A DNA stretch of 64,000 bases, from assembly GCA_027923505.1 (NCBI GenBank), contig BROI01000012.1, positions 868,001-932,000 of the forward strand, in the 5' to 3' direction. Position 1 is the first letter of the stretch. Every line of letters starts with the position of its first letter. Below, piece after piece: positions 1-15,476 of the stretch. The position numbers and the translations under genes were made by a program. Under the pieces are notes generated by a model. The model was given only the letters and a program-made list of their open reading frames with translations, did not search any database and had not been told where the DNA came from. Source of the stretch: Mayamaea pseudoterrestris. Its lineage: Eukaryota.

Positions 1-3000
1 TTCTGGCTGCGCTACAAGTTGGTATGCCTGGCTAGTGTCTCAGGGGACGGCAATGATATTGGTGACAACTTGTCACCAGTCTCAGCCTGCCGATGCCGTG
101 ACATTCAAACGCCCTACAGCAATACACCAAATGACACAGAATGGTGCCCAACATCATTTTCAGCTGTGCAACAATGGTATCCTGGCTTCTCAAATGTTAA
201 ACATCTCCACAAAGCCCCCATCTGTGGTGCAAATGCAGAATCGTTGCCTATTCAGGCTGCGCTACAAGATGAGTTTCCTGCTTGTCAATGATATTGGTGA
301 CAACATGTAACCGTCTCCCAGCCTGCTACGTGACATTCAAACCCGCCTTAGGTACACCAAAATACACCCAGAATGGTGCCAACATCATTATTCAGGCTGC
401 CCTACAAGATGGTATGCCTGGCTGAGTGTCTCTCAGGGGATGGGGTGTTGGCGACCAACTTGTCACCGTCTCTCAAGCCTCGAATCGTGACATTCACCCA
501 CCGCACGCAATGACACTTCAGAATGGTCCATCATCATATTCGTTAACATGGTATGCTGGTATGGTGTGCTCGGGGATGGCAATGATATTGGTGACAACTT
601 GTGTCACTCCTTCTCGTGCCTGACATTCAAACCCCACAGCCCATGTAGGTACCCAAAAACACACCAGAATGGTGCCAACATCATTATTCAGGCTGCGTAA
701 ATGGTATGCCTGGCTAGTGTGTCAGAGGTGGCAATGATATTGGTGACAACTTGTCCCGTCTCAACCCAGATCCGTACATTCAAACGCTACAAAGCCATGT
801 AGTACACCCAAATGACACCAGAATGGTGCCAACATCTGATTCAGACTGCGCTACAAGATGGTGTATGCCGTAGTGTCTCAGGGGACGGCAATGATAGTGG
901 TAACAACTTGTCTCCAGTCTCCAGCCAGGGATCCGTGACATTCAAACCCCTAAGACAGCCTTTGTACACAAATACACCAGAATGGTGCCAACATCATTTC
1001 ATGCGCTTCGCTCGTTGGGGACGAATGATATTGGTACAACTTGTACGTCTACCTGACATTCAAACCTACACATGTAGTACCAAGAACAAATTGCAACATC
1101 TTATTCAGACTGCGCTACAATGTCCTGGTGTTCTAGAATATAATGGTGACAACTTGTCACTCTCCTGAACCGCCCAGCCATGTATACACCCAAATAACAC
1201 CAAATGTAACATGTTTCGGCTGCTTACAAGATGGTATACCTGGCTAGTGTCTCAGGGGACGGCAATGATATTGGTAACAACTTGTCACCAGTCTCAGCTC
1301 GATGCCGTGACATTCAAACGCCCCTACAACAGGCCTGTTGCCCCAAATACACCAGAATGGTGCCAACATCATTATTCAGGCATGCGCTACAAGATGGTAT
1401 GCCTGGCTGGTGTCTCAGGGGACGAGATATTGGTGACAACTTGTCACCTCTCACACATTCAACGCCCCACGGCCCTGTGTACCCCAAATAACACCAGAAT
1501 GGTGCCAAAATCATTATTCGAGGCTGCGCAACAAATGGTATGCCTGGCTGTGTCTCGGGGGATGTATTGGTGACAACTTCTCCTCCTACACACCCCTACA
1601 GCAGCCATGTATACACCCAAAACAATTCAAATCATTATTCAGGCTGCGCCAACGAGATGGTATGCCTGGCTGGGTGTCTCAGGCGGCAATGATATTGGTG
1701 ACAACTTGTCACGAGTCTCACCTCACCGACATTCAACCCCTCAACAGCCATGTTACACCCAAATGTCACCAGAATGGTCCATCTTGCGTCAAATGTATCC
1801 TGGCTAGTGTCTCAGGGGTTGGCAATGATATTGGTGACAACTTGTCACATCTCGCCCGCAGATCCGTGACACAAACCTGTGCACCGTCTCACCTGCAGAT
1901 CCGTGACATTCAAACACCCTACAGCAGGCCATATATACACCAAATGACACCAGAATGTGCCACATCTATTCGCTGCGCAACAGTTTCTTTCTCAGGGGAC
2001 GGCAATGATATTGGTGACAACTTGTCTCCAGTCCTCAACCTGCAATCCATACATTCAAACCCCCACTGTAGTACACACAAAATACACCAATGGTGCCAAC
2101 ATCATTATTCGGGCTGCGCTACAATGGTATCCTCTCGTAGTGTCTCAGGGGACGGCAATGATATTGGTGACAACTTGTCACCAGTCTCAGCCAGCAGATG
2201 CCATGACATTCAAACGCCCCTACAGCAGGCCACATATACACCCAAATGACACCAGAATGGTGCCAACATCATTATTCAGGGCTGCGCTACAAGATGGTAT
2301 GCCTGGATAGTGTCTCAAGGGACAGCAATGATATTGGTGACAACTTGTCCCCAGTCTCAGCCTGCAGATGCCATGACATTCAAACGCCCCTACAGCAGGC
2401 CATGTATACACCCAAATGACACCAGAATGGTGCCAACATCATTATTCAGGCTGCGCTACAAGATGGTATGCCTGGCTAGTGTCTCGGGGGACGGCAATGA
2501 TATTGGTGACAACTTGTCACCAGTCTCAGCCTGCAGATGCCGTGACATTCAAACACTCCTACAGCAGGCCATGTATACACCCAAATGACATCAGAATGGT
2601 GCCAGTATCAATATTCAGGCTGCGCTACAAGATGGTATGCCTGGCTAGTGTCTCAAGGGACAGCAATGATATTGGTGACAACTTGTCACCAGTCTCAGCC
2701 CGCAGATGCCGTGACATTCAAACACCCCTACAGCAGGCCATGTATACACCCAAATGACACCAGAATGGTGCCAACATCATTATTCAGGCTGCGCTACAAG
2801 ATGGTATGCCTGGCTAGTGTCTCAGGGGACGGCAATGATATTGGTGATGTCACCAGTCTCACCTGCGACGTGACACAACCAAGTGTAACACCCAAATGAC
2901 CCAGAATGGTGCCAACATCTATTCAGACAAGATGGTATGCCTGGCTGTGTCTGGGGACACAATATATTGGTGACACTTATTCATCTCTGATCCTGACATA

Positions 3001-6000
3001 AAACCCACCTTGGGCACCAAATACACCAGAATGTGCCAACATCATTATCTCGCATTGCCTGCTTGTCTCGGGGACGAATATAGTGGTGACAACTTGTCAC
3101 CGTCTCAGTCTTGTGCGCCCTACAAGCCAGGTTACACCCAAATGACACCAGAATGGTGCCAACATCTGTTCCTGCGCTACAAATGGTATGCCTGGCTAGT
3201 GTCTCAGGAGCTGGCAATGTATTGGTGACAACTTGTCACCAGTCTCAGCCTGATGTACAAATTCAAACGCCCTACAGCCGCCAGTACACGAAGTCCAACA
3301 TCATTATTGGTCTACAAGTGTATCCTGTGTGTTCTCGGGACAATGATATTGGTGACTTGTCACTCCTCACCTGAGATCCGTGACATTCAAACGCCCCCGA
3401 CCCTGTGTGCCACACCAGAATGGTGCCAACATCAATTCAGGCTGCGCTTCACAATGGTAATGCCTGAGCTAGTGTCTCGGGACACAATGATGTGGTGACA
3501 ATATCACCCAGTCTCAGCCTGCAGATGCGTGACATTCAGCCTTCCCTACAGCAGGCCATGTATACAGCCAAACAACCTGAATGGTGCCAACATCATTATT
3601 CAGGCTGAGCTGCAAGATGGTATGCCTGGCTGGTGTCTCAGGACGGCAATGATATTGGTGACAGCTTGTCACCAGTCTCCAGCCTAGATGCGACATTCAA
3701 ACCTTTCTGGCGTATGCCCCCCAAAACTGTTCCGGCGTTTGCCAACATATCGTTCAAACTACAGTATTACTGGCTGTGTCTCAGGACGTAATGAGATAGA
3801 TAGCACCAGTACTCGGCCTGCAGATGCGGTGGCATCCATCAATGAGCCATAATATACTGATAGCGCCGAATGGTGCCAACGTCAGTTCTTCAGGCTTGCG
3901 CAACGGATGGTATGCCTGGCTAGTGTCTCCGTGATAATGGTGACAGCATTCACTGATCTCAGCCTACCAGAATCTGATATTCAAACACCATGACTATACT
4001 CCAAATGACACCAGAATGGTGCCAACATCATTATTCAGGCTGCTGCACATAGCATGCCTGGCTAGTGTCTCAGGGGACGGCATTCATATTGTGACAACTT
4101 GTCACCAGTCTCAGCCTGCAGATGCCGTGACATTCAAACAACCCTACAGCAGGCCATGTATACTCCCAAATGACACCAGAATGGTGCCAACATCATTTTT
4201 CAGGCTGCGCTACAAGATGGTATGCCTGGATAGTGTCTCAAGGGACAGCAATGATATTGGTGACAACTTGTCACCAGTCTCAGCCCGCAGATGCCATAAC
4301 ATTCAAACACACCTTCAGCAGGCTATGTATACACCCAAATGACACCAGAATGGTGCCAACATCATTATTCAGGCTGCGCTACAAGATAGTATGCCTGGCT
4401 AGTGTCTCAGGGGACGACAATGATATTGGTGACAACTTGTCACCAGTCTCAGCCTGCGGATGCCGTGACATTCAAACACCCCTACAGCAGGCCATGACTA
4501 TACACCCAAATGACACCAGAATGGTGCCAACATCATTATTCAGGCTGCGCTACAAGATGGTATGCCTGGCTAGAGCCCCAGGGGACGGTAATGATATTGG
4601 TGACAACTTGTCACCAGTCTCAGCCTGCAGATGCCGTGACATTCAAACAACCCTACAGCAGGCTATGTAACACCAAATACACCAGAATGGTGCAACATCA
4701 TTATTCAGGCTGCGCTACAAGATGGTATGCCTGGCAAGTGTCTCAGGGGACAGCAATGATTTTGGTGACAACTTGTCACCACTCTCCGCCTGCAGATGCC
4801 GTGACATTCAAACGCCCCTACAGCAGGCCATGTATACTCCCAAATGACACCAGAATGGTGCCAACATCATTATTCAGGCGCGCCACAAGATGGTAGCGGT
4901 GGCAAGTGCCCAGGGGACGGCAATTGATATTGGTGACAACTTGTCACCAGTCTCAGGCCCCGAGTGACATTCAAACCACCCCCTACAGCAGGCCATGACT
5001 ATACCCAAATGACACCACAGAATGGTGCCAACATCATTATTCAGGCTGTGCCACAAGATGGTATGCCTGGCTAGTGTCTCAGGGGACGGCAACGATAATG
5101 GTGACAACTTGTCACCAGTCAGCCTGCAGATGCCGTGACATTCAAACAACACCTACAGCAGGCCATGTACAACACCCAAATGACACCAGAATGGTGCCAA
5201 CATCAGTGTTCAGGCTGCGCCACAAGATGGTATGCCTGGCAAGTGTCTCAGGGGACAGCAATGATATTGGTGACAACTTGTCACCACCCTCAGCCCGCGA
5301 GATGCCGTGACATTCAAACGCCCTACAGCAGGCCAGTGAATACTCCAAATGACACCAGAAAGGTGCCAACATCATTATTCAGGCTGCGCTACAAGATAGT
5401 ATGCCTGAGCTAGTGACTCAGGGACGGTAATGATATTGGCGACAACTTGTCACCAGTCTCAGCCTGCAGATGCCGTGACATTCAAACACCCCTACAGCAG
5501 GCCATGTATACACCCAAATGACACCAGAATGGTGCCAACATCATTATTCAGGCTGCGCTACAAGATGGTATGCCTGGCTAGTGTCTCAGAGGACGGCAAT
5601 GATATTGGTGACAACTTGTCACCAGTCTCAGCCTGCAGATGCCGTGACATTCAAACGCCCTTTCAGCAGGCCATGAATATATCCAAATGACACCAGAATG
5701 GTGCCAACATCATTATTCAGGCTGCGCTACAAGATGGTATGCCTGGCTAGTGTCTCAGGGGATGGCAATGATATTGGTGACAACTTGTCACCAGTCTCAG
5801 CCTGCAGATGCCGTGACATTCAAACACCCCTTCAGCAGGCCATGTATACACCCAAATGACACCAGAATGGTGCCAACATCATTATTCAGGCTGCGCTACA
5901 AGATGGTATGCCCTGGCTAGTGTCTCAGGGGACGGCAATGATATTGGTGACAACTTGTCACCAGTCTCAGCCTGCAGATGCCGTGACATTCAAACGCCCC

Positions 6001-9000
6001 TACAGCAGGCCATGTATACACCCAAATGACACCAGAATGGTGCCAACATCATTATTCAGGCTGCGCTACAAGATGGTATGCCTGGCTAGTGTCTCAGGGG
6101 ACGGCAATGATATTGGTGACAACTTGTCACCAGTCTCAGCCTGCGGATGCCGTGACATTCAAACACCCCTACAGCAGGCCATGACTATACACCCAAATGA
6201 CACCAGAATGGTGCCAACATCATTATTCAGGCTGCGCTACAAGATGGTATGCCTGGCTAGTGTCTCAGGGGACGGCAATGATATTGGTGACAACTTGTCA
6301 CCAGTCTCAGCCCGCGGATGCCGTGACATTCAAACACCCCTACAGCAGGCCATGACTATACCCAAATGACACCAGAATGGTGCCAACATCATTATTCAGG
6401 CTGCGCTACAAGATGGTATGCCTGGCTAGTGTCTCAGGGGACGGCAATGATATTGGTGACAACTTGTCACCAGTCTCAGCCCGCGGATGCCGTGACATTC
6501 AAACGCCCCTACAGCAGGCCATGTATACACCCAAATGACACCAGAATGGTGCCAACATCATTATTCAGGCTGCGCTACAAGATAGTATGCCTGGCTAGTG
6601 TCTCAGGGGACGGCAATGATATTGGTGACAACTTGTCACCAGTCTCAGCCTGCAGATGCCATGACATTCAAACACCCCTACAGCAGGCCATGTATACACC
6701 CAAATGAGACCAGAATTGTGCCAACATCATTATTCAGGCTGCGCTACAAGATGGTATGCCTGGCTAGTGTCTCAGGGGACAGCAATGATATTGGTGACAA
6801 CTTGTCACCAGTCTCAGCCTGCAGATGCCATGACATTCAAATGCCCCTACAGCAGGCTATGTATACACCCAAATGACACCAGAATGGTGCCAACATCATT
6901 ATTCAGGCTGCGCTACAAGATGGTATGCCTGGCTAGTGTCTCAGGGGACGGCAATGATATTGGTGACAACTTGTCACCAGTCTCAGCCCGCGGATGCCGT
7001 GAGATTTAAACGCCCCTATAGCAGGCTATGTATACACCCAAATGACACTAGAATGGTGCAAACTTCATTATTCCGGCTGCGCTACAAGATGGTATGCCTG
7101 GCTAGTGTCTCAGGGGACGGCAATGATATTGTTGACAACCTGTCACCAGTCTTAGCCCGCGGATGCTGTGACATTCAAACACCCCTACAGCAGGCCATGA
7201 CTATACCCAAATGACACCAGAATGGTGCCAACATCATTATTCAGGCTGCGCTACAAGATGGTATGCCTGGCTAGTGTCTCAGGGGTTGGCAATGTATTTG
7301 GTGACAACTTGTCACCAGTCTCAGCCCGCGGATGCCGTGACATTCAAACACCCCTACAGCAGGCCATGACTATACCCAAATGACACCAGAATGGTGCCAA
7401 CATCATTATTCAGGCTGCGCTACAAGATAGTATGCCTGGCTAGTGTCTCAGGGGACGGCAATGATATTGGTGACAACTTGTCACCAGTCTCAGCCTGCAG
7501 ATGCCGTGATATTCAAACACCCCTACAGCAGGCCATGTATACACCCAAATGAGACCAGAATTGTGCCAACATCATTATTCAGGCTGCGCTACAAGATGGT
7601 ATGCCTAACTAGTGTCTCAGGGGATGGCAATGATATTGGTGACAACTTGTCACCAGTCTCAGCCTGCAGATGCCATGACATTCAAACACACCTTCAGCAG
7701 GCCATGTATACACCCAAATGACACCAGAATGGTGCCAACATCATTATTCAGGCTGCGCTACAAGATGGTATGCCTGGCTAGTGTCTCAGGGGACGGCAAT
7801 GATATTGGTGACAACTTGTCACCAGTCTCAGCCTGCAGATGCCGTGACATTCAAACGCCCCTACAGCAGGCTATGTATACACCCAAATGACACCAGAATG
7901 GTGCCAACATCATTATTCAGGCTGCGCTACAAGATGGTATGCCTGGCTAGTGTCTCAGGGGACAGCAATGATATTGGTGACAACTTGTCACCAGTCTCAG
8001 CCCGCGGATGCCGTGACATTCAAACGCCCCTACAGCAGGCCATGTATACACCCAAATGACACCAGAATGGTGCCAACATCATTATTCAGGCTGCGCTACA
8101 AGATGGTATGCCTGGCTAGTGTCTCAGGGGACGGCAATGATATTGGTGACAACTTGTCACCAGTCTCAGCCTGCAGATGCCGTGACATTCAAACACCCCT
8201 ACAGCAGGCCATGTATACACCCAAATGACACCAGAATGGTGCCAACATCATTATTCAGGCTGCGCTACAAGATGGTATGCCTGGCTAGTGTCTCAGGGGA
8301 CAGCAATGATATTGGTGACAACTTGTCACCAGTCTCAGCCTGCAGATGCCATGACATTCAAATGCCCCTACAGCAGGCCATGTATACACCCAAATGACAC
8401 CAGAATGGTGCCAACATTATTATTCAGGCTGCGCTACAAGATGGTATGCCTGGCTAGTGTCTCAGGGGACGGCAATGATATTGGTGACAACTTGTCACCA
8501 GTCTCAGCCCGCGGATGCCGTGAGATTTAAACGCCCCTATAGCAGGCTATGTATACACCCAAATGACACTAGAATGGTGCAACCTTCATTATTCAGGCTG
8601 TGCTACAAGATGGTATGCCTGGCTAGTGTCTCAGGGGACGGCAATGATATTGTTGACAACTTGTCACCAGTCTCAGCCCGCGGATGCCGTGACATTCAAA
8701 CACCCCTACAGCAGGCCATGACTATACCCAAATGACACCAGAATGGTGCCAACATCATTATTCAGGCTGCGCTACAAGATGGTATGCCTGGCTAGTGTCT
8801 CAGGGGTTGGCAATGTATTTGGTGACAACTTGTCACCAGTCTCAGCCTGCGGATGCCGTGACATTCAAACGCCCCTACAGCAGGCCATGACTATACCCAA
8901 ATGACACCAGAATGGTGCCAACATCATTATTCAGGCTGCGCTACAAGATGGTATGCCTGGCTAGTGTCTCAGGGGACGGCAATGATATTGGTGACAACTT

Positions 9001-12000
9001 GTCACCAGTCTCAGCCTGCAGATGCCGTGATATTCAAACACCCCTACAGCAGGCCATGTATACACCCAAATGAGACAAGAATTGTGCCAACATCATTATT
9101 CAGGCTGCGCTACAAGATGGTATGCCTAACTAGTGTCTCAGGGGACGGCAATGATATTGGTGACAACTTGTCACCAGTCTCAGCCTGCAGATGCCGTGAC
9201 ATTCAAACGCCCCTTCAGCAGGCCATGTATACACCCAAATGACACCAGAATGGTGCCAACATCATTATTCAGGCTGCGCTACAAGATGGTATGCCTGGCT
9301 AGTGTCTCAGGGGACGGCAATGATATTGGTGACAACTTGTCACCAGTCTCAGCCTGCGGATGCCATGACATTCAAACACACCTTCAGCAGGCCATGTATA
9401 CACCCAAATGACACCAGAATGGTGCCAACATCATTATTCAGGCTGCGCTACAAGATGGTATGCCTGGCTAGTGTCTCAGGGGACAGCAATGATATTGGTG
9501 ACAACTTGTCACCAGTCTCAGCCTGCAGATGCCGTGACATTCAAACGCCCCTACAGCAGGCCATGTATACACCCAAATGACACCAGAATGGTGCCAACAT
9601 CATTATTCAGGCTGCGCTACAAGATGGTATGCCTGGCTAGTGTCTCAGGGGATGCAATGATATTGGTGACAACTTGTCACCAGTCTCAGCCCGCGGATGC
9701 CGTGAGATTTAAACGCCCCTATAGCAGGCTATGTATACACCCAAACGACACTAGAATGGTGCCAACATCATTATTCAGGCTGCGCTACAAGATGGTATGC
9801 CTGGCTAGTGTCTCAGGGGTTGGCAATGTATCAGGTGACAACTTGTCACCAGTCTCAGCCTGCAGATGCCATGACATTCAAACACACCTTCAGCAGGCCA
9901 TGTATACACCAAAATTACACCAGAATGGTGCCAACATCATTATTCAGGCTGCGCTACAAGATGGTATGCCTGGCTTGTGTCTCAGGGGACTGCAATGATA
10001 TTGGTGACAACTTGTCACCAGTCTCAGCCCGCGGATGCCGTGAGATTTAAACGCCCCTATAGCAGGCTATGTATACACCCAAATGACACCAGAATGGTGC
10101 CAACATCATTATTCAGGCTGCGCTACAAGATGGTAGGCTTGGCTGGTGTCTCAGGGGTTGGCAATGTATCTGGTGACAACTTGTCACCAGTCTCAGCCCG
10201 CGGAACCGTGACATTCAAACGCCCCTACAGCAGGCCATGACTATACTTAAATGACACCAGAATGGTGCCAACATCATTATTCAGGCTGCGCTACAAGATG
10301 GTATGCCTGGCTAGTGTCTCAGGGGACGGCAATGATATTGGTGACAACTTGTCACCAGTCTCAGCCTGCAGATGCCGTGACATTCAAACAACCCTACAGC
10401 AGGCCATGTATACACCCAAATGACACCAGAATGGTGCCAACTTCATTATTCAGGCTGCGCTACAAGATGGTATGCCTGGCTAGTGTCTCAGGGGACGGCA
10501 ATGATATTGGTGACAACTTGTCACCAGTCTCAGCCTGCAGATGCCATGACATTCAAACACACCTTCAGCAGGCCATGTATACACCCAAATGACACCAGAA
10601 TGGTGCCAACATCATTATTCAGGCTGCGCTACAAGATGGTATGCCTGGCAAGTGTCTCAGGGGACAGCAATGATATTGGTGACAACTTGTCACCACTCTC
10701 AGCCTGCAGATGCTGTGACATTCAAACGCCCCTACAGCAGGCTATGTATACACCCAAATGACACCAGAATGGTGCCAACATCATTATTCAGGCTGCGCTA
10801 AAAGATGGTATGCCTGGCTAGTGTCTCAGGGGACTGCAATGATATTGGTGATAACTTGTCACCAGTCTCAGCCTACAGATGCCGTGACATTCAAACGCCC
10901 CTACAGCAGGCCATGTATACACCCAAATGACACCAGAATGGTGCCAACATCATTATTCAGGCTGCGCTACAAGATGGTATGCCAGGATAGTGTCTCAGGG
11001 GATGGCAATGGTATTGGTGACAACTTGTCACTAGTCTCAGTCTGCAGATGCCGTGACATTCAAACAACCCTACAGCAGGCTATGTATACACCCAAATGAC
11101 ACCAGAATGGTGCCAACATCATTATTCAGGCTGCGCTACAAGATGGTATGCCTGGCTAGTGTCTCAGGGGATGGCAATGATATTGGTGACAACTTGTCAC
11201 CAGTCTCAGCCTGCAGATGCCATGACATTCAAACACACCTTCAGCAGGCCATGTATACACCCAAATGACACCAGAATGGTGCCAACATCATTATTCTCAG
11301 GGGATGGCAATGATATTGGTGACAACTTGTCACCAGTCTCAGCCTGCAGATGCCATGACATTCAAACACACCTTCAGCAGGCCATGTATACACCCAAATG
11401 ACACCAGAATGGTGCCAACATCATTATTCAGGCTGCGCTACAAGATGGTATGCCTGGCAAGTGTCTCAGGGGACAGCAATGATTTTGGTGACAACTTGTC
11501 ACCACTCTCAGCCTGCAGATGCCGTGACATTCAAACACCCCTTCGACAGGCCATGTATACACCCAAATGACACCAGAATGGTGCCAACATTAGTATTCAG
11601 GCTGCGCTACAAGCTGGTATGCCTGGATAGTGTCTCAAGGGACAGCAATGATATTGGTGACAACTTGTCACCAGTCTCAGCCTGTAGATGTCGTGACATT
11701 CAACGCCCCTTCGACAGGCCATGTATACACCCAAATGACACCAGATTGGTGCCAACATCAGTATTCAGGCTGCGCTACAAGATGGTATGCCTGGATAGTG
11801 TCTCACGGGACAGCAATGATATTGGTGACAACTTGTCACCAGTCTCATCCCGCGGATGCCGTGACATTCAAATGCCCCTACAGCAGGCCATGACTATACC
11901 CAAATGACACCAGAATGGTGCCAACATCATTTTTCAGGCTGAGCTACAAGATAGTATGCCTGGCTAGTGTCTCAGGGGACGGCAATGATATTGGTGACAA

Positions 12001-13144
12001 CTTGTCACCAGTCTCAGCCTGCAGATGCCGTAATATTCAAACACCCCTACAACAGGCCATGTATACACCCAAACGAGACCAGAATTGTGCCAACATCATT
12101 ATTCAGGCTGCGCTAAAAGATGGTATGCCTAACTAGTGTCTCAGGGGACGGCAATGATATTGGTGACAACTTGTCACCAGTCTCAGCCTGCGGATGCCGT
12201 GACATTCAAACACCCCTACAGCAGGCCATGTATACACCCAAATGACACCAGAATGGTGCCAACATCATTATTCAGGCTGCGCTACAAGATGGTATGCCTG
12301 GCTAGTGTCTCAGGGGATGGCAATGGTATTGGTGACAACTTGTCACCAGTCTCAGCCTGCAGATGCCGTGACATTCAAACACCCCTACAGCAGGCCATGT
12401 ATACACCCAAATGACACCAGAATGGTGCCAACATCATTATTCAGGCTGCGCTACAAGATGGTAGGCTTGGCTGGTGTCTCAGGGGTTGGCAATGTATTTG
12501 GTGACAACTTGTCACCAGTCTCAGCCTGCAGATGCCCTGGCATTCAAACACACATACAGCAGGCCCTGTAGGCTGGGGATGGCAATGTATTTGGTGACAA
12601 CTTGTCACCAGTCTCTACGGATGCCATGACATTCAAACACACCTACAGCAGGCCCGGTAGGTTCCCAAAATACACCAAAATGGTGCCAACATCATTATTT
12701 CAGCTGCGCTACAAGATGGTAGGCTTGGCTGGTGTCACAGGGGATGGCAATGTTTTTGGTGACAATTTGTCACCAGTCTCAGCCCGCAGATGCCATGACA
12801 TTCAAACACACCTACAGCAAGCTCTGTAGGTGCCCAAACTACACCAGAATGGTGCCAACATCCTTTTCAGGCTGCGCTACAAGATGGTATGCCTGGATAG
12901 TGTCTCAAGGGACAGCAATGATATTGGTGACAACTAGTCACCAATCTCAGCCCGCAGATGCCGTGACATTCCAATCCAACTACAGCAGTCCCTGTAGGTG
13001 CCCAAATTACACCAGAATGGTTCCAACATTGGTTTTGAGGCTGCACTACAAGATGGTAAGCTTGGCTGGTGTCTCAGGAGATGGCAATGTATTTGGTGAA
13101 TAGCAGGTATGCAACAGAAAGTAGTATCACTATGCCGTTAAAAG

Positions 13145-13203
13145 TAGCGCACCTCGGAATCGAACCAAGGATAACCGGCTATATCACCTCTAAACACGCT
13201 GCT
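13145..13203 (-). ncRNA. tRNA-like Pol III module within the LTR (copy 1)
   Basis: The minus strand reads AGCAGCGTGTTTAGAGGTGATATAGCCGGTTATCCTTGGTTCGATTCCGAGGTGCGCTA, followed by CTTTT. It has a perfect B box GGTTCGATTCC in a T-arm (CTTGG/CCGAG), an A-box-like TGTTTAGAGG, a truncated anticodon arm and a T4 terminator. Confidence 0.7.
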
Positions 13204-13614
13204 ACTTTTCCGTCTGCTAGTGTACTATATGCTGCATACAAGGCACCATGCACTATGACAAGTAAAGGTATCGCTCTGGTTGCTGTTTTTCGTGTGCAAC
13301 CTGCTACTCCCCTAGCTTTGCGCGTCATAGTGCTAACTCGTCTTCCGTTTCAGCTGGCATTTTCGTCTCGCGGGGGAATGTCACTTTTCAGTTTTTCCTG
13401 CGGCGTTTCGGGCTCGGCGCATCTTTGTGCACTCCCCAGGGTCCGCGACTCCCCATCGTTCGTTCGTGACAAACCCGTGCAACCAGTGAATTTTTGCTTT
13501 TTCTTCGCTTGATTCGATCGCAACTCGAACCAGCAGCCTCAGTCCAGATCTCTCGATAGGGACGCTACCATAGCAGGTATGCAACAGAAAGTAGTATCAC
13601 TATGCCGTTAAAAG

Positions 13615-13673
13615 TAGCGCACCTCGGAATCGAACCAAGGATAACCGGCTATATCACCTCTAAACACGCTGCT
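13615..13673 (-). ncRNA. tRNA-like Pol III module within the LTR (copy 2)
   Basis: Identical to copy 1, shifted by 470 bp. Confidence 0.7.
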
Positions 13674-15403
13674 ACTTTTCCGTCTGCTAGTGTACTATAT
13701 GCTGCATACAAGGCACCATGCACTATGACAAGTAAAGGTATCGCTCTGGTTGCTGTTTTTCGTGTGCAACCTGCTAGTGACACCTTGTCACCAATCTCAG
13801 CCCGCAGATGCCGTGACATTCAAACGCCCCTACAGCAAGCCCTGTAGGTGCCCAAAATACACCAGAATAGTGCCAACATCATTATTCAGGCTGCGCTACA
13901 AGATGGTAGGCTTGGCGGGTGTCTCGGGGGATGGCAATGTATTTGGTGACAACTTGTCACCAGTCTCAGCCCGCAGATGCCATGACATTCAAACACCCCT
14001 ACAGCAAGCCCTGTAGGTGCCCAAATTACACCAGAATGGTGCCAACATCATTATTCAGGCTGCGCTACAAGATGGTAGGCTTGGCTGGTGTCTCAAAGGA
14101 TGGCAATGTATTTGGTGACAACTTGTCACCAGTCTCAGCTTAAGATGCCATGACATTCAAACACCCCTACAGCAGGCCATGACTATACCCAAATGACACC
14201 AGAATGGTGCCAACATCATTATTCCAGCTGCGCTACAAGATGGTTGGCTTGGCTGGTGTCTCAGGGGATGGCACAGTATTTGGTGACAACTTGTCACCAG
14301 TCTCAGCCCGCAGATGCCGTGACATTCCAACCCCCCTACAGCAAGCCCAGTAGGTGCCCAAATTATACCGGAATGTTGCCAACAACATTGTTGAGACTGC
14401 GCTACAAGATGGTAGGCTTGGCTGGTGTCTCAGGGGATGGCAATGTATTTGGTGACAACTTGTCACCAGTCTCAGCCCACAGATGGTGTGACATTTAAAC
14501 ACACCTACAGCAAGACCTGTAGGTGCCCAAAATACACCAGAATGTTGCCAACAACAGTTTTGAGGCTGCGCTACAAGATGGTAGGCTTGGCTGGTGTCTC
14601 AGAAAATGGCAATGTATTTGGTGACAACTTGTCACCAGTCTCAGCCCGCAGATGCCTTGACATTCCAACCCCCCTACAGCAAGACCTGTAGGTGCCCAAA
14701 ATACACCAAAATGGTGCCAACAACAGTTTTGAGGCTGCGCTACAAGATGGTAGGCTTGGCTGGTGTCTCAGGGGATGGCACTGTATTTGGTGACAACTTG
14801 TCACCAGTCTCAGCCCGCAGATGCCGTGACATTCCAACCCCCCTACAGCAAGCCCAGTAGGTGCCCAAATTATACCAGAATGTTGCCAACAACATTGTTG
14901 AGGCTGCGCTACAAGATGGTAGGCTTGGCTGGTGTCTCAGGGGATGGCAATGTATTTGGTGACAACTTGTCACCAATCTCAGCCCGCAGATGCCTAGATA
15001 TTCAATCGCCCATATAACACGCCATGTATACACCCAAATCACACCAGAATGGTGCCAACATCTTTTTCAGCCTGCGCTACAAGGTTATATGCCTGGTGGG
15101 TGTCTCAGTAGACTGCAATGTGACTGGTGACAAGTTGTCACCATTCTTGGTATGTATGCCATGGTTTCCAACAGCTCATTCTCAAAGCTCTGCCACTGCC
15201 TGCGTTCAATGAATCAATGTAAATATTGACAACAGCGAGGATTATAAAATATTCTGCAAAAGACTTGTTTGGTAGCCAAACACCAGTGGATTGGGCACCA
15301 TATCTAAGAATTTGCGCTTTTGGCACCTTTTTTGGGCCAAAAAAGAGTTTTTCACCAAAATTCTTGACAAAATAAAGAGCTATTCTCCTCCAATGCAAAA
15401 AGA

Positions 15404-15476
15404 TTCCGATACAGGGACTCGAACCCTGGTTTCCTGCGTGAGAGGCAAGTGTGATCACCACCTACACTATATCGGA
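15404..15476 (-). tRNA. tRNA-Glu (anticodon CTC)
   Basis: The minus strand reads TCCGATATAGTGTAGGTGGTGATCACACTTGCCTCTCACGCAGGAAACCAGGGTTCGAGTCCCTGTATCGGAA. It has a 7-bp acceptor stem, a CTTGC-CTCTCAC-GCAGG anticodon arm, a GTTCGAG T loop and a downstream T5 terminator. Confidence 0.96.

Follow-up and report, generated by a model that had tools for sequence, protein, structure and literature searches.

TRIMs, or terminal-repeat retrotransposons in miniature, with tRNA-like long terminal repeats (LTRs) were named Helenus by Kojima in 2024 (PMC10886601). According to the available text of that paper, Helenus elements measure 311–1263 bp and carry conserved boxes A (TRGCY ... YGG) and B (with a conserved GGTTC), a primer-binding site (PBS), a polypurine tract (PPT) and target duplications of 4 or 5 bp. 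Their hosts are rust and agaric fungi, six animal phyla (bivalve molluscs included) and Selaginella; the fungal families pair with Copia and have 5-bp duplications, and the animal families pair with Gypsy and have 4-bp duplications (PMC10886601). Helenus forms the class TRIMp3 together with Ajax, a 5S-type TRIM of two nemerteans, and Cassandra, whose transcripts start and end in the LTR 5S units, and the small-RNA unit was proposed to be an RNA polymerase III (Pol III) promoter (PMC10886601). In Cassandra, each LTR was described as containing the unit of a small-RNA gene together with a Pol III promoter and a terminator (PMC10853983, PMC7215508). Neither 'diatom' nor 'stramenopile' is mentioned in the available text of the 2024 paper, and searches of one literature library on Helenus, TRIMp3, tRNA-like LTRs and diatom TRIMs returned no later diatom report, the nearest being 27 'putative TRIM/LARD' annotated in Phaeodactylum (PMC5859163) and the diatom Copia element Blackbeard (PMC2806351). 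Here, a TRIM with a tRNA-like module in each LTR is described from the diatom Mayamaea pseudoterrestris, in a stretch of 64,000 nt (contig BROI01000012.1 of assembly GCA_027923505.1, positions 868,001 to 932,000 of the forward strand; hereafter the window). The element is best regarded as a new diatom member of the class described in 2024, assigned by its architecture, and its design is already published.

The element was a non-coding LTR element of 677 bp at 13100–13776 of the window with its sense strand on the minus strand (Table 1). A repeat comparison within the window showed two direct repeats of 207 nt each with 100% identity. On the sense strand, the 5' LTR was followed by the PBS, TGGTAGCGTCC(C), which overlaps the end of the 5' LTR by its first T, then by an internal part of 263 nt ending in the short purine tract AGGGGAG, and finally by the 3' LTR. 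Only two sense-strand open reading frames (ORFs) reached the lower listing limit of 30 amino acids (aa); they were 49 and 56 aa long and lay mostly inside the LTRs, with none within the internal region, and no Pfam match was found for the three ORFs scanned of the five listed across the element. Runs of A were enriched on the sense strand, with 7 observed against 2.3 expected and 8 of 2000 shuffles reaching 7. No second copy of the element was found within the 64-kb window.

The insertion site was an array of a 169-bp satellite of approximately 13 kb (window ~2067–15147), in which one unit was split by 681 bp. The satellite copies flanking the insert begin at 13035 and 13885, a spacing of 850 that equals 169 + 677 + 4. 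GTGA was present at both borders, and deletion of the insert with one GTGA gave back the register of the neighbouring units, which read ...GGTGACAAC... where they are uninterrupted. An earlier note on this DNA had called the element a TRIM, and the short identical LTRs of 207 nt, the length of 677 bp (below 1 kb), the PBS, the purine tract, the GTGA duplication and the lack of gag/pol coding capacity made this near certain. The insertion is probably recent.

Each LTR contained on the sense strand, at LTR positions 81–167, a partial A box, a degenerate middle, a T-arm, GTGCGCT, a discriminator-like A, a C and TTTT (T4) in this order. The T-arm, CCTTGG-TTCGATT-CCGAGG, has a 6-bp stem and a 7-nt loop and holds a perfect B box, GGTTCGATTCC. 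Such a sense-strand unit, with a perfect B box in the T-arm and a T4 run in each LTR, is what the earlier note had read; as delimited there (13203 to 13145) it ends ...GGTGCGCTA, followed by C and then TTTT (13143–13140). The further description as a cloverleaf of about 59 nt with an A-like box stood for the B box, T-arm and T4 and less well for the rest. The A box TAGCAGACGG at LTR 88–97 was partial, with TRGC and CGG present and A instead of Y as the fifth base; ARAGORN at relaxed settings drew a cloverleaf of 83 nt (LTR 81–163) in which the variable arm is long and the anticodon loop has 8 nt; and the 5' half allowed several registers. A second A-box candidate, TAGCAGCGTGT, was found at LTR 103–113.

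The window contained three perfect matches to the B-box consensus, one in each LTR and one in a real tRNA-Glu gene, compared to one in 30 dinucleotide-shuffled 64-kb windows. Relaxed ARAGORN on the 64 kb called the two LTR modules and the tRNA-Glu and nothing else, with 5 matches in the 30 shuffled windows. The tRNA-Glu(CTC) gene lies at 15404–15476 on the minus strand, about 260 bp beyond the satellite array and at a distance of 1.6 kb from the TRIM, with a TATA-like CATAATATGG about 14–23 nt upstream. Its T5 terminator stands 2 nt past the discriminator, compared to 1 nt for the T4 of the module. The 3' half of the module appears convincingly tRNA-derived in its sequence, and derivation of the module from a tRNA is considered likely. 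A descent from initiator tRNA in particular was unsupported, as the alignment scores given below showed no significant similarity. A scan for the T-loop and acceptor end of the module was uninformative, with two matches of which one had no tRNA and the other was an 85-nt tRNA-Glu called by ARAGORN in a viral contig. The only two Rfam matches were taken as chance, namely a sno_ncR3 look-alike on the module with 16.4 bits (gathering score 88) and RMST_1 with 14.3 bits. The Rfam scan of the region gave no match to 5S rRNA at E ≤ 10.

The primer implied by the PBS would have the 3' end GGACGCTA-CCA, the acceptor AGCGTCC/GGACGCT, discriminator A and an A1:U72 pair. An A1:U72 pair characterises eukaryotic initiator tRNA-Met, the usual primer for elements of the Copia type, and the form of the PBS fits an initiator tRNA because the implied acceptor has this pair. 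Initiator-type tRNAs with a matching 3' end were sought in IMG/VR viral contigs and JGI metagenomes, outside the host genome. Two complete tRNA-Met(CAT) genes with the acceptor AGCGTCC/GGACGCTA were found, L001 in IMG/VR and L002 in a JGI metagenome, and these paired with the PBS without mismatch over 12 nt (−26.0 kcal/mol) and 11 nt (−22.2 kcal/mol), respectively, compared to −5.6 kcal/mol for the tRNA-Glu. The two genes prove that initiator tRNAs with this end exist, not that the host diatom has one. Priming of the PBS by a host initiator tRNA-Met is judged likely, its identity being read from these non-host tRNAs. L001 lies at 269–428 of an AT-rich 70-kb IMG/VR contig, where the initiator-type tRNA-Met is followed 15 nt later by a tRNA-Asn, and the near-identical tRNA-Met of L002 lies on a 2.1-kb metagenome contig. 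A second metagenome match, L003, was a chance match with no tRNA there.

With CCA added, the module (...GCGCTACCA) formed 8 Watson-Crick pairs and 1 G-U pair with the PBS before a mismatch, at a duplex energy of −19.8 kcal/mol, so that the count given in the earlier note was confirmed by direct reading. Three of these pairs are the universal CCA/TGG. For the other five matched positions, with uniform base frequencies assumed, we put the nominal chance at about 1 in 1000, a figure that overstates the surprise because A is the usual discriminator. In Ty1, a 10-nt PBS is complementary to the acceptor 3' end of tRNAiMet (PMC4974528). The present element resembles Ty1/Copia priming in its short PBS to an initiator tRNA 3' end, with 11–12 nt here and 10 nt in Ty1. 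Unlike Ty1, pairing of the Ty1 type with the T and D arms was undetectable: extended pairing with the leader was not significant for the module (74 of 300 shuffles as good) or for the two initiator-type tRNAs (181 of 300 and 128 of 300 shuffles as good). The fold of the stretch from module to leader was also not significant (z = −0.17). A scan of viral contigs for the junction of LTR end and PBS gave 0 matches, and when the literature was searched for the letters of the PBS or of its complement, the 15 papers listed of 44 had titles on unrelated topics. The complementarity between module and PBS is curious and probably incidental.

Contigs of four sequencing runs were aligned to window 13307–13840; X1, X3 and X4 belong to one study, possibly the source of the assembly, and X5 to a second study. 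In all four runs, the LTR and the internal part formed a cycle of 470 nt that had 0 differing letters. A different contig, again in all four, exactly shared only 13560–13595, which comprises the 11-nt PBS core and the LTR's last 25 nt. On either side of this stretch, the contig ran on into 255 nt of other sequence in X3, X4 and X5, and in X1 the PBS side only was listed; 30 letters of each 255-nt flank were visible. The depth in bins 13559–13594 roughly doubled in every run, and by eye a further exact 10-mer was common to both elements 6–7 nt beyond the PBS. On the LTR side, the 30 visible letters of the second element were unrelated to the module 3' end and T4 that the TRIM has at the same place. 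The PBS would therefore be a family trait independent of the module, and the wider family would be primed by something other than the module, because the second element shares the PBS without the module 3' end. The second element looks like a candidate autonomous partner or sister family of the TRIM.

A diverged LTR piece was found in X1 (record 2), on a single low-depth contig of 151 nt with depth 2.5 and approximately 11% divergence (14 differences over 13570–13696). Its T4 was lost, and six of the nine listed changes fell inside the module. The B box was still compatible with the consensus (G to A at a purine position), and the T-stem had a G-U pair.

In comparison with Helenus, the element is likewise a small non-coding TRIM with a tRNA-like unit in each LTR, a tRNA-type PBS, a PPT and a 4-bp duplication, and its putative autonomous partner would share the PBS region and not most of the LTR. 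It differs from Helenus in having a diatom host, a partial box A and a module 3' end that is partly complementary to the PBS, and in being known from one full copy. The analogy to Cassandra drawn in the earlier note was apt, and the architecture is that of the published Helenus/TRIMp3 class: both carry a small-RNA gene unit with Pol III-type signals in each LTR, tRNA-like here and 5S in Cassandra. Ajax is also a TRIM whose LTR has a Pol III promoter derived from a small RNA, and differs in being 5S-type and nemertean. The same note had mentioned tRNA-type Ajax elements in molluscs, which was mistaken, since Ajax is the 5S type of nemerteans and the tRNA-type families are Helenus (PMC10886601).

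Overall, the whole is best explained, with a chance that we put slightly above even, as a recent non-autonomous TRIM of the Helenus/TRIMp3 type in a diatom that would be mobilised in trans, primed by initiator tRNA and equipped with a Pol III module. Copying and integration would be carried out by a protein-coding relative, probably Copia-like, that shares the LTR tip, the PBS and part of the leader. The 4-bp duplication of the TRIM fits a diatom Copia relative because the target duplication of Blackbeard, TTCC, is also 4 bp (PMC2806351). Reverse transcription would be primed by the host initiator tRNA-Met, with the predicted 3' end ...GGACGCTACCA. In the least certain step, the module would act as an internal Pol III promoter, with a transcript that starts at the module of the 5' LTR and reads through the weak T4 there. 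The transcript would end at the T4 of the 3' LTR and the module would form the terminal repeat (R) for strand transfer, as described for Cassandra. The match of nine pairs between module and PBS would be a by-product, the module having by chance, or by descent, an initiator-like A1:U72 ...CGCTA acceptor end. Of the Pol III role proposed in the earlier note, the signals were present (B box, partial A box and T4), and for the role itself, as suggested by these signals, we consider the chances even.

Several observations weigh against this explanation. Default ARAGORN found only the tRNA-Glu and did not call the module, the Rfam tRNA model gave it no listing at E ≤ 10 even when the search was narrowed to 81 nt, its fold alone was not significant (z = −1.45), and the 5' strand of its closing stem, like its 5' half, could be drawn in at least three registers. 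Global alignments of the module with the two initiator-type tRNAs, the tRNA-Asn and the tRNA-Glu were not significant either, the z scores ranging from −0.6 to 1.7. The module is degenerate in its 5' half, and since both tools were silent at normal thresholds we conclude that it is not a working tRNA gene. With one full copy and the one low-depth diverged LTR contig as material, no signal was backed by conservation or covariation. Concerning transcription, runs of four or more T occurred on the sense strand only once per LTR, but the absence of other TTTT was not significant as a Pol III signature, as 2691 of 5000 shuffles were also without TTTT. The T4 stands 45 nt upstream of the PBS, so that a Pol III transcript serving as template must read through it, and the TATA-like CATATAG that lies a little upstream of the module, at LTR 76–82, would suit Pol II just as well. 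The LTR termini on the sense strand, TAGCAGG...CCTGCTA(T) (13100–13107 / 13769–13776), end in TA...AT and not in the usual TG...CA. In addition, L001 and L002 lie in AT-rich, probably viral contigs and not in a diatom, and the candidate partner was seen only as 30-letter contig ends.

Some of these observations would be expected if the module were a passenger relic, that is, a captured fragment of a tRNA or short interspersed element (SINE) without a role in transcription or priming in an ordinary Pol II-transcribed TRIM. The degenerate 5' half with the silent Rfam tRNA model and the weak fold, the TATA-like motif, a T4 right behind the module that would halt Pol III ahead of the PBS, and the diverged X1 contig with its lost T4 and its changes concentrated in the module all suit such a relic. 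However, a flawless 11-nt B box, an intact T-arm, a discriminator A and a T4 in the right order look maintained, and this layout is kept across hundreds of Helenus families according to the available text of PMC10886601; the relic is judged rather unlikely. That the module is not tRNA-derived at all, but a hairpin that resembles a B box by chance within an ordinary LTR, is considered improbable. The Rfam result, the lack of significant similarity to the four tRNAs and the five false matches of relaxed ARAGORN in shuffled windows would agree with a chance hairpin, but the B box alone occurred once in 30 shuffled windows, and here a perfect B box, the 6-bp stem and 7-nt loop of the T-arm, the closing stem, the discriminator A and the T4 stand jointly in tRNA order on the sense strand within 207 nt.

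Two further explanations would give the module a function as an RNA. A short tRNA mimic that is cut and CCA-tailed has a precedent in mascRNA, and the LTR element Tf1 is primed by its own RNA, through the 5' end of its transcript and not through a tRNA mimic; neither joins a tRNA mimic with self-priming. The earlier note had proposed such a union, in which the LTR tRNA mimic would be transcribed by Pol III, trimmed past the discriminator A, CCA-tailed and annealed to its own PBS, priming the minus strand. In a variant of this model, the mimic would act as a decoy that tunes priming. The gene-like order with the discriminator A followed by T4 favours the self-supplied primer, and so do the pairs with their energy of −19.8 kcal/mol, over a length comparable to the 10-nt PBS of Ty1, and the nominal rarity of five matches beyond the CCA. 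According to the available text of PMC10886601, a tRNA-like sequence as primer was considered and no Helenus family had complementarity to its PBS, so that the match is not generic to the class. However, the match stops after nine pairs where the initiator-type tRNAs are perfect over 11–12 nt, and in a copy whose LTRs are 100% identical one would expect a perfect match from a primer under selection. The second element has the same PBS with unrelated sequence at the position of the module 3' end and T4, the extended pairing of module and leader was matched in the shuffles, and CCA addition to a module RNA is hypothetical. Self-priming is therefore held to be very unlikely, the initiator-type tRNAs matching the PBS better and the second element sharing it with an unrelated region in place of the module end. 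Were it true, this would be the first known case of a retroelement with a gene for the primer of its own reverse transcription. A T-arm with a closing stem is what RNase P and RNase Z recognise, and the module has both, so that its tRNA-like fold might instead be a processing signal cut from a longer transcript to set the ends of the element RNA, in parallel to MALAT1/mascRNA and the hammerheads of plant retrozymes. In the retrozymes, which are non-autonomous TRIM-like elements, each LTR contains a motif for RNA processing, and a functional RNA motif per LTR is what they would share with the present element (available text of PMC5680766). The 470-nt cycle of LTR and internal part in all four runs would also agree, though an ordinary LTR-internal-LTR copy yields the same. 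Unlike the retrozyme hammerhead, no hammerhead, other ribozyme or known processing motif was matched in the Rfam scan of the region, and a cut at the module would take away the R/U3 needed for strand transfer; a processing signal is the reading to which we give scarcely any probability.

The favoured explanation, a recent diatom TRIM of the Helenus/TRIMp3 type, would extend this class to diatoms and hence to stramenopiles and would support a repeated origin of the design. The module-PBS match is one concrete complementarity with which the priming idea, dismissed in the 2024 paper for want of an example, is now testable at the bench. The element is also a caution for diatom tRNA annotation because relaxed tRNA finders call the LTRs.

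Table 1. Positions of the features of the TRIM in the 64,000-nt window.
Feature	Position	Strand	Basis or remark
Target-site duplication, left copy, GTGA (+ strand letters)	13096–13099		Matching 4 nt at 13777–13780
3' LTR, 207 nt	13100–13306	−	Identical to 13570–13776
T4 run, Pol III terminator-like, 3' LTR copy	13140–13143	−	One base past the discriminator A of the module
tRNA-like module, 3' LTR copy, 83 nt	13144–13226	−	Relaxed ARAGORN; B box 13166 to 13156, partial A box TAGCAGACGG 13219 to 13210
Internal region, 263 nt, non-coding	13307–13569	−	ORF listing and Pfam
Polypurine-tract-like AGGGGAG	13307–13313	−	Adjoins 3' LTR (13313 to 13307 on the sense strand); putative function
PBS TGGTAGCGTCC(C)	13559–13570	−	11-nt core (13570 to 13560) common to the second element
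Stretch of 36 nt, PBS core and last 25 nt of LTR	13560–13595	−	Exact match in the contig of a different element
5' LTR, 207 nt	13570–13776	−	Repeat comparison (13776 to 13570 on the sense strand)
T4 run, 5' LTR copy	13610–13613	−	Sequence reading
tRNA-like module, 5' LTR copy	13614–13696	−	Relaxed ARAGORN; B box 13636 to 13626, partial A box 13689 to 13680
Target-site duplication, right copy, GTGA	13777–13780		Matches left copy

The four sequencing runs in which the 470-nt cycle showed no difference carried four different coded organism labels in two studies, so that they would either come from strains of a single species or reflect a spread that was very recent. In X1, X3 and X4, the summed depth of the satellite contigs was in the thousands to tens of thousands compared to 16–39 for the element. 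The relation was reversed in X5, which had 15.7 million contig letters; here the element contig had a depth of 871, the second element added approximately 680, and the satellite contigs summed to 22–135. X5 also contained contigs with long T runs and a depth bump (up to approximately 3400) at 13491–13540, beside the A-rich tract of the element. A cDNA library made with oligo-dT, in which priming occurred internally on a minus-strand RNA, would agree with the pattern in X5, but contigs cannot by themselves show expression. Within the LTR, the motif TAGCAG occurred twice more, at sense positions 88 and 103. Finally, a neighbouring PPR protein in the window had named relatives in diatoms, with the closest relative 54% identical.

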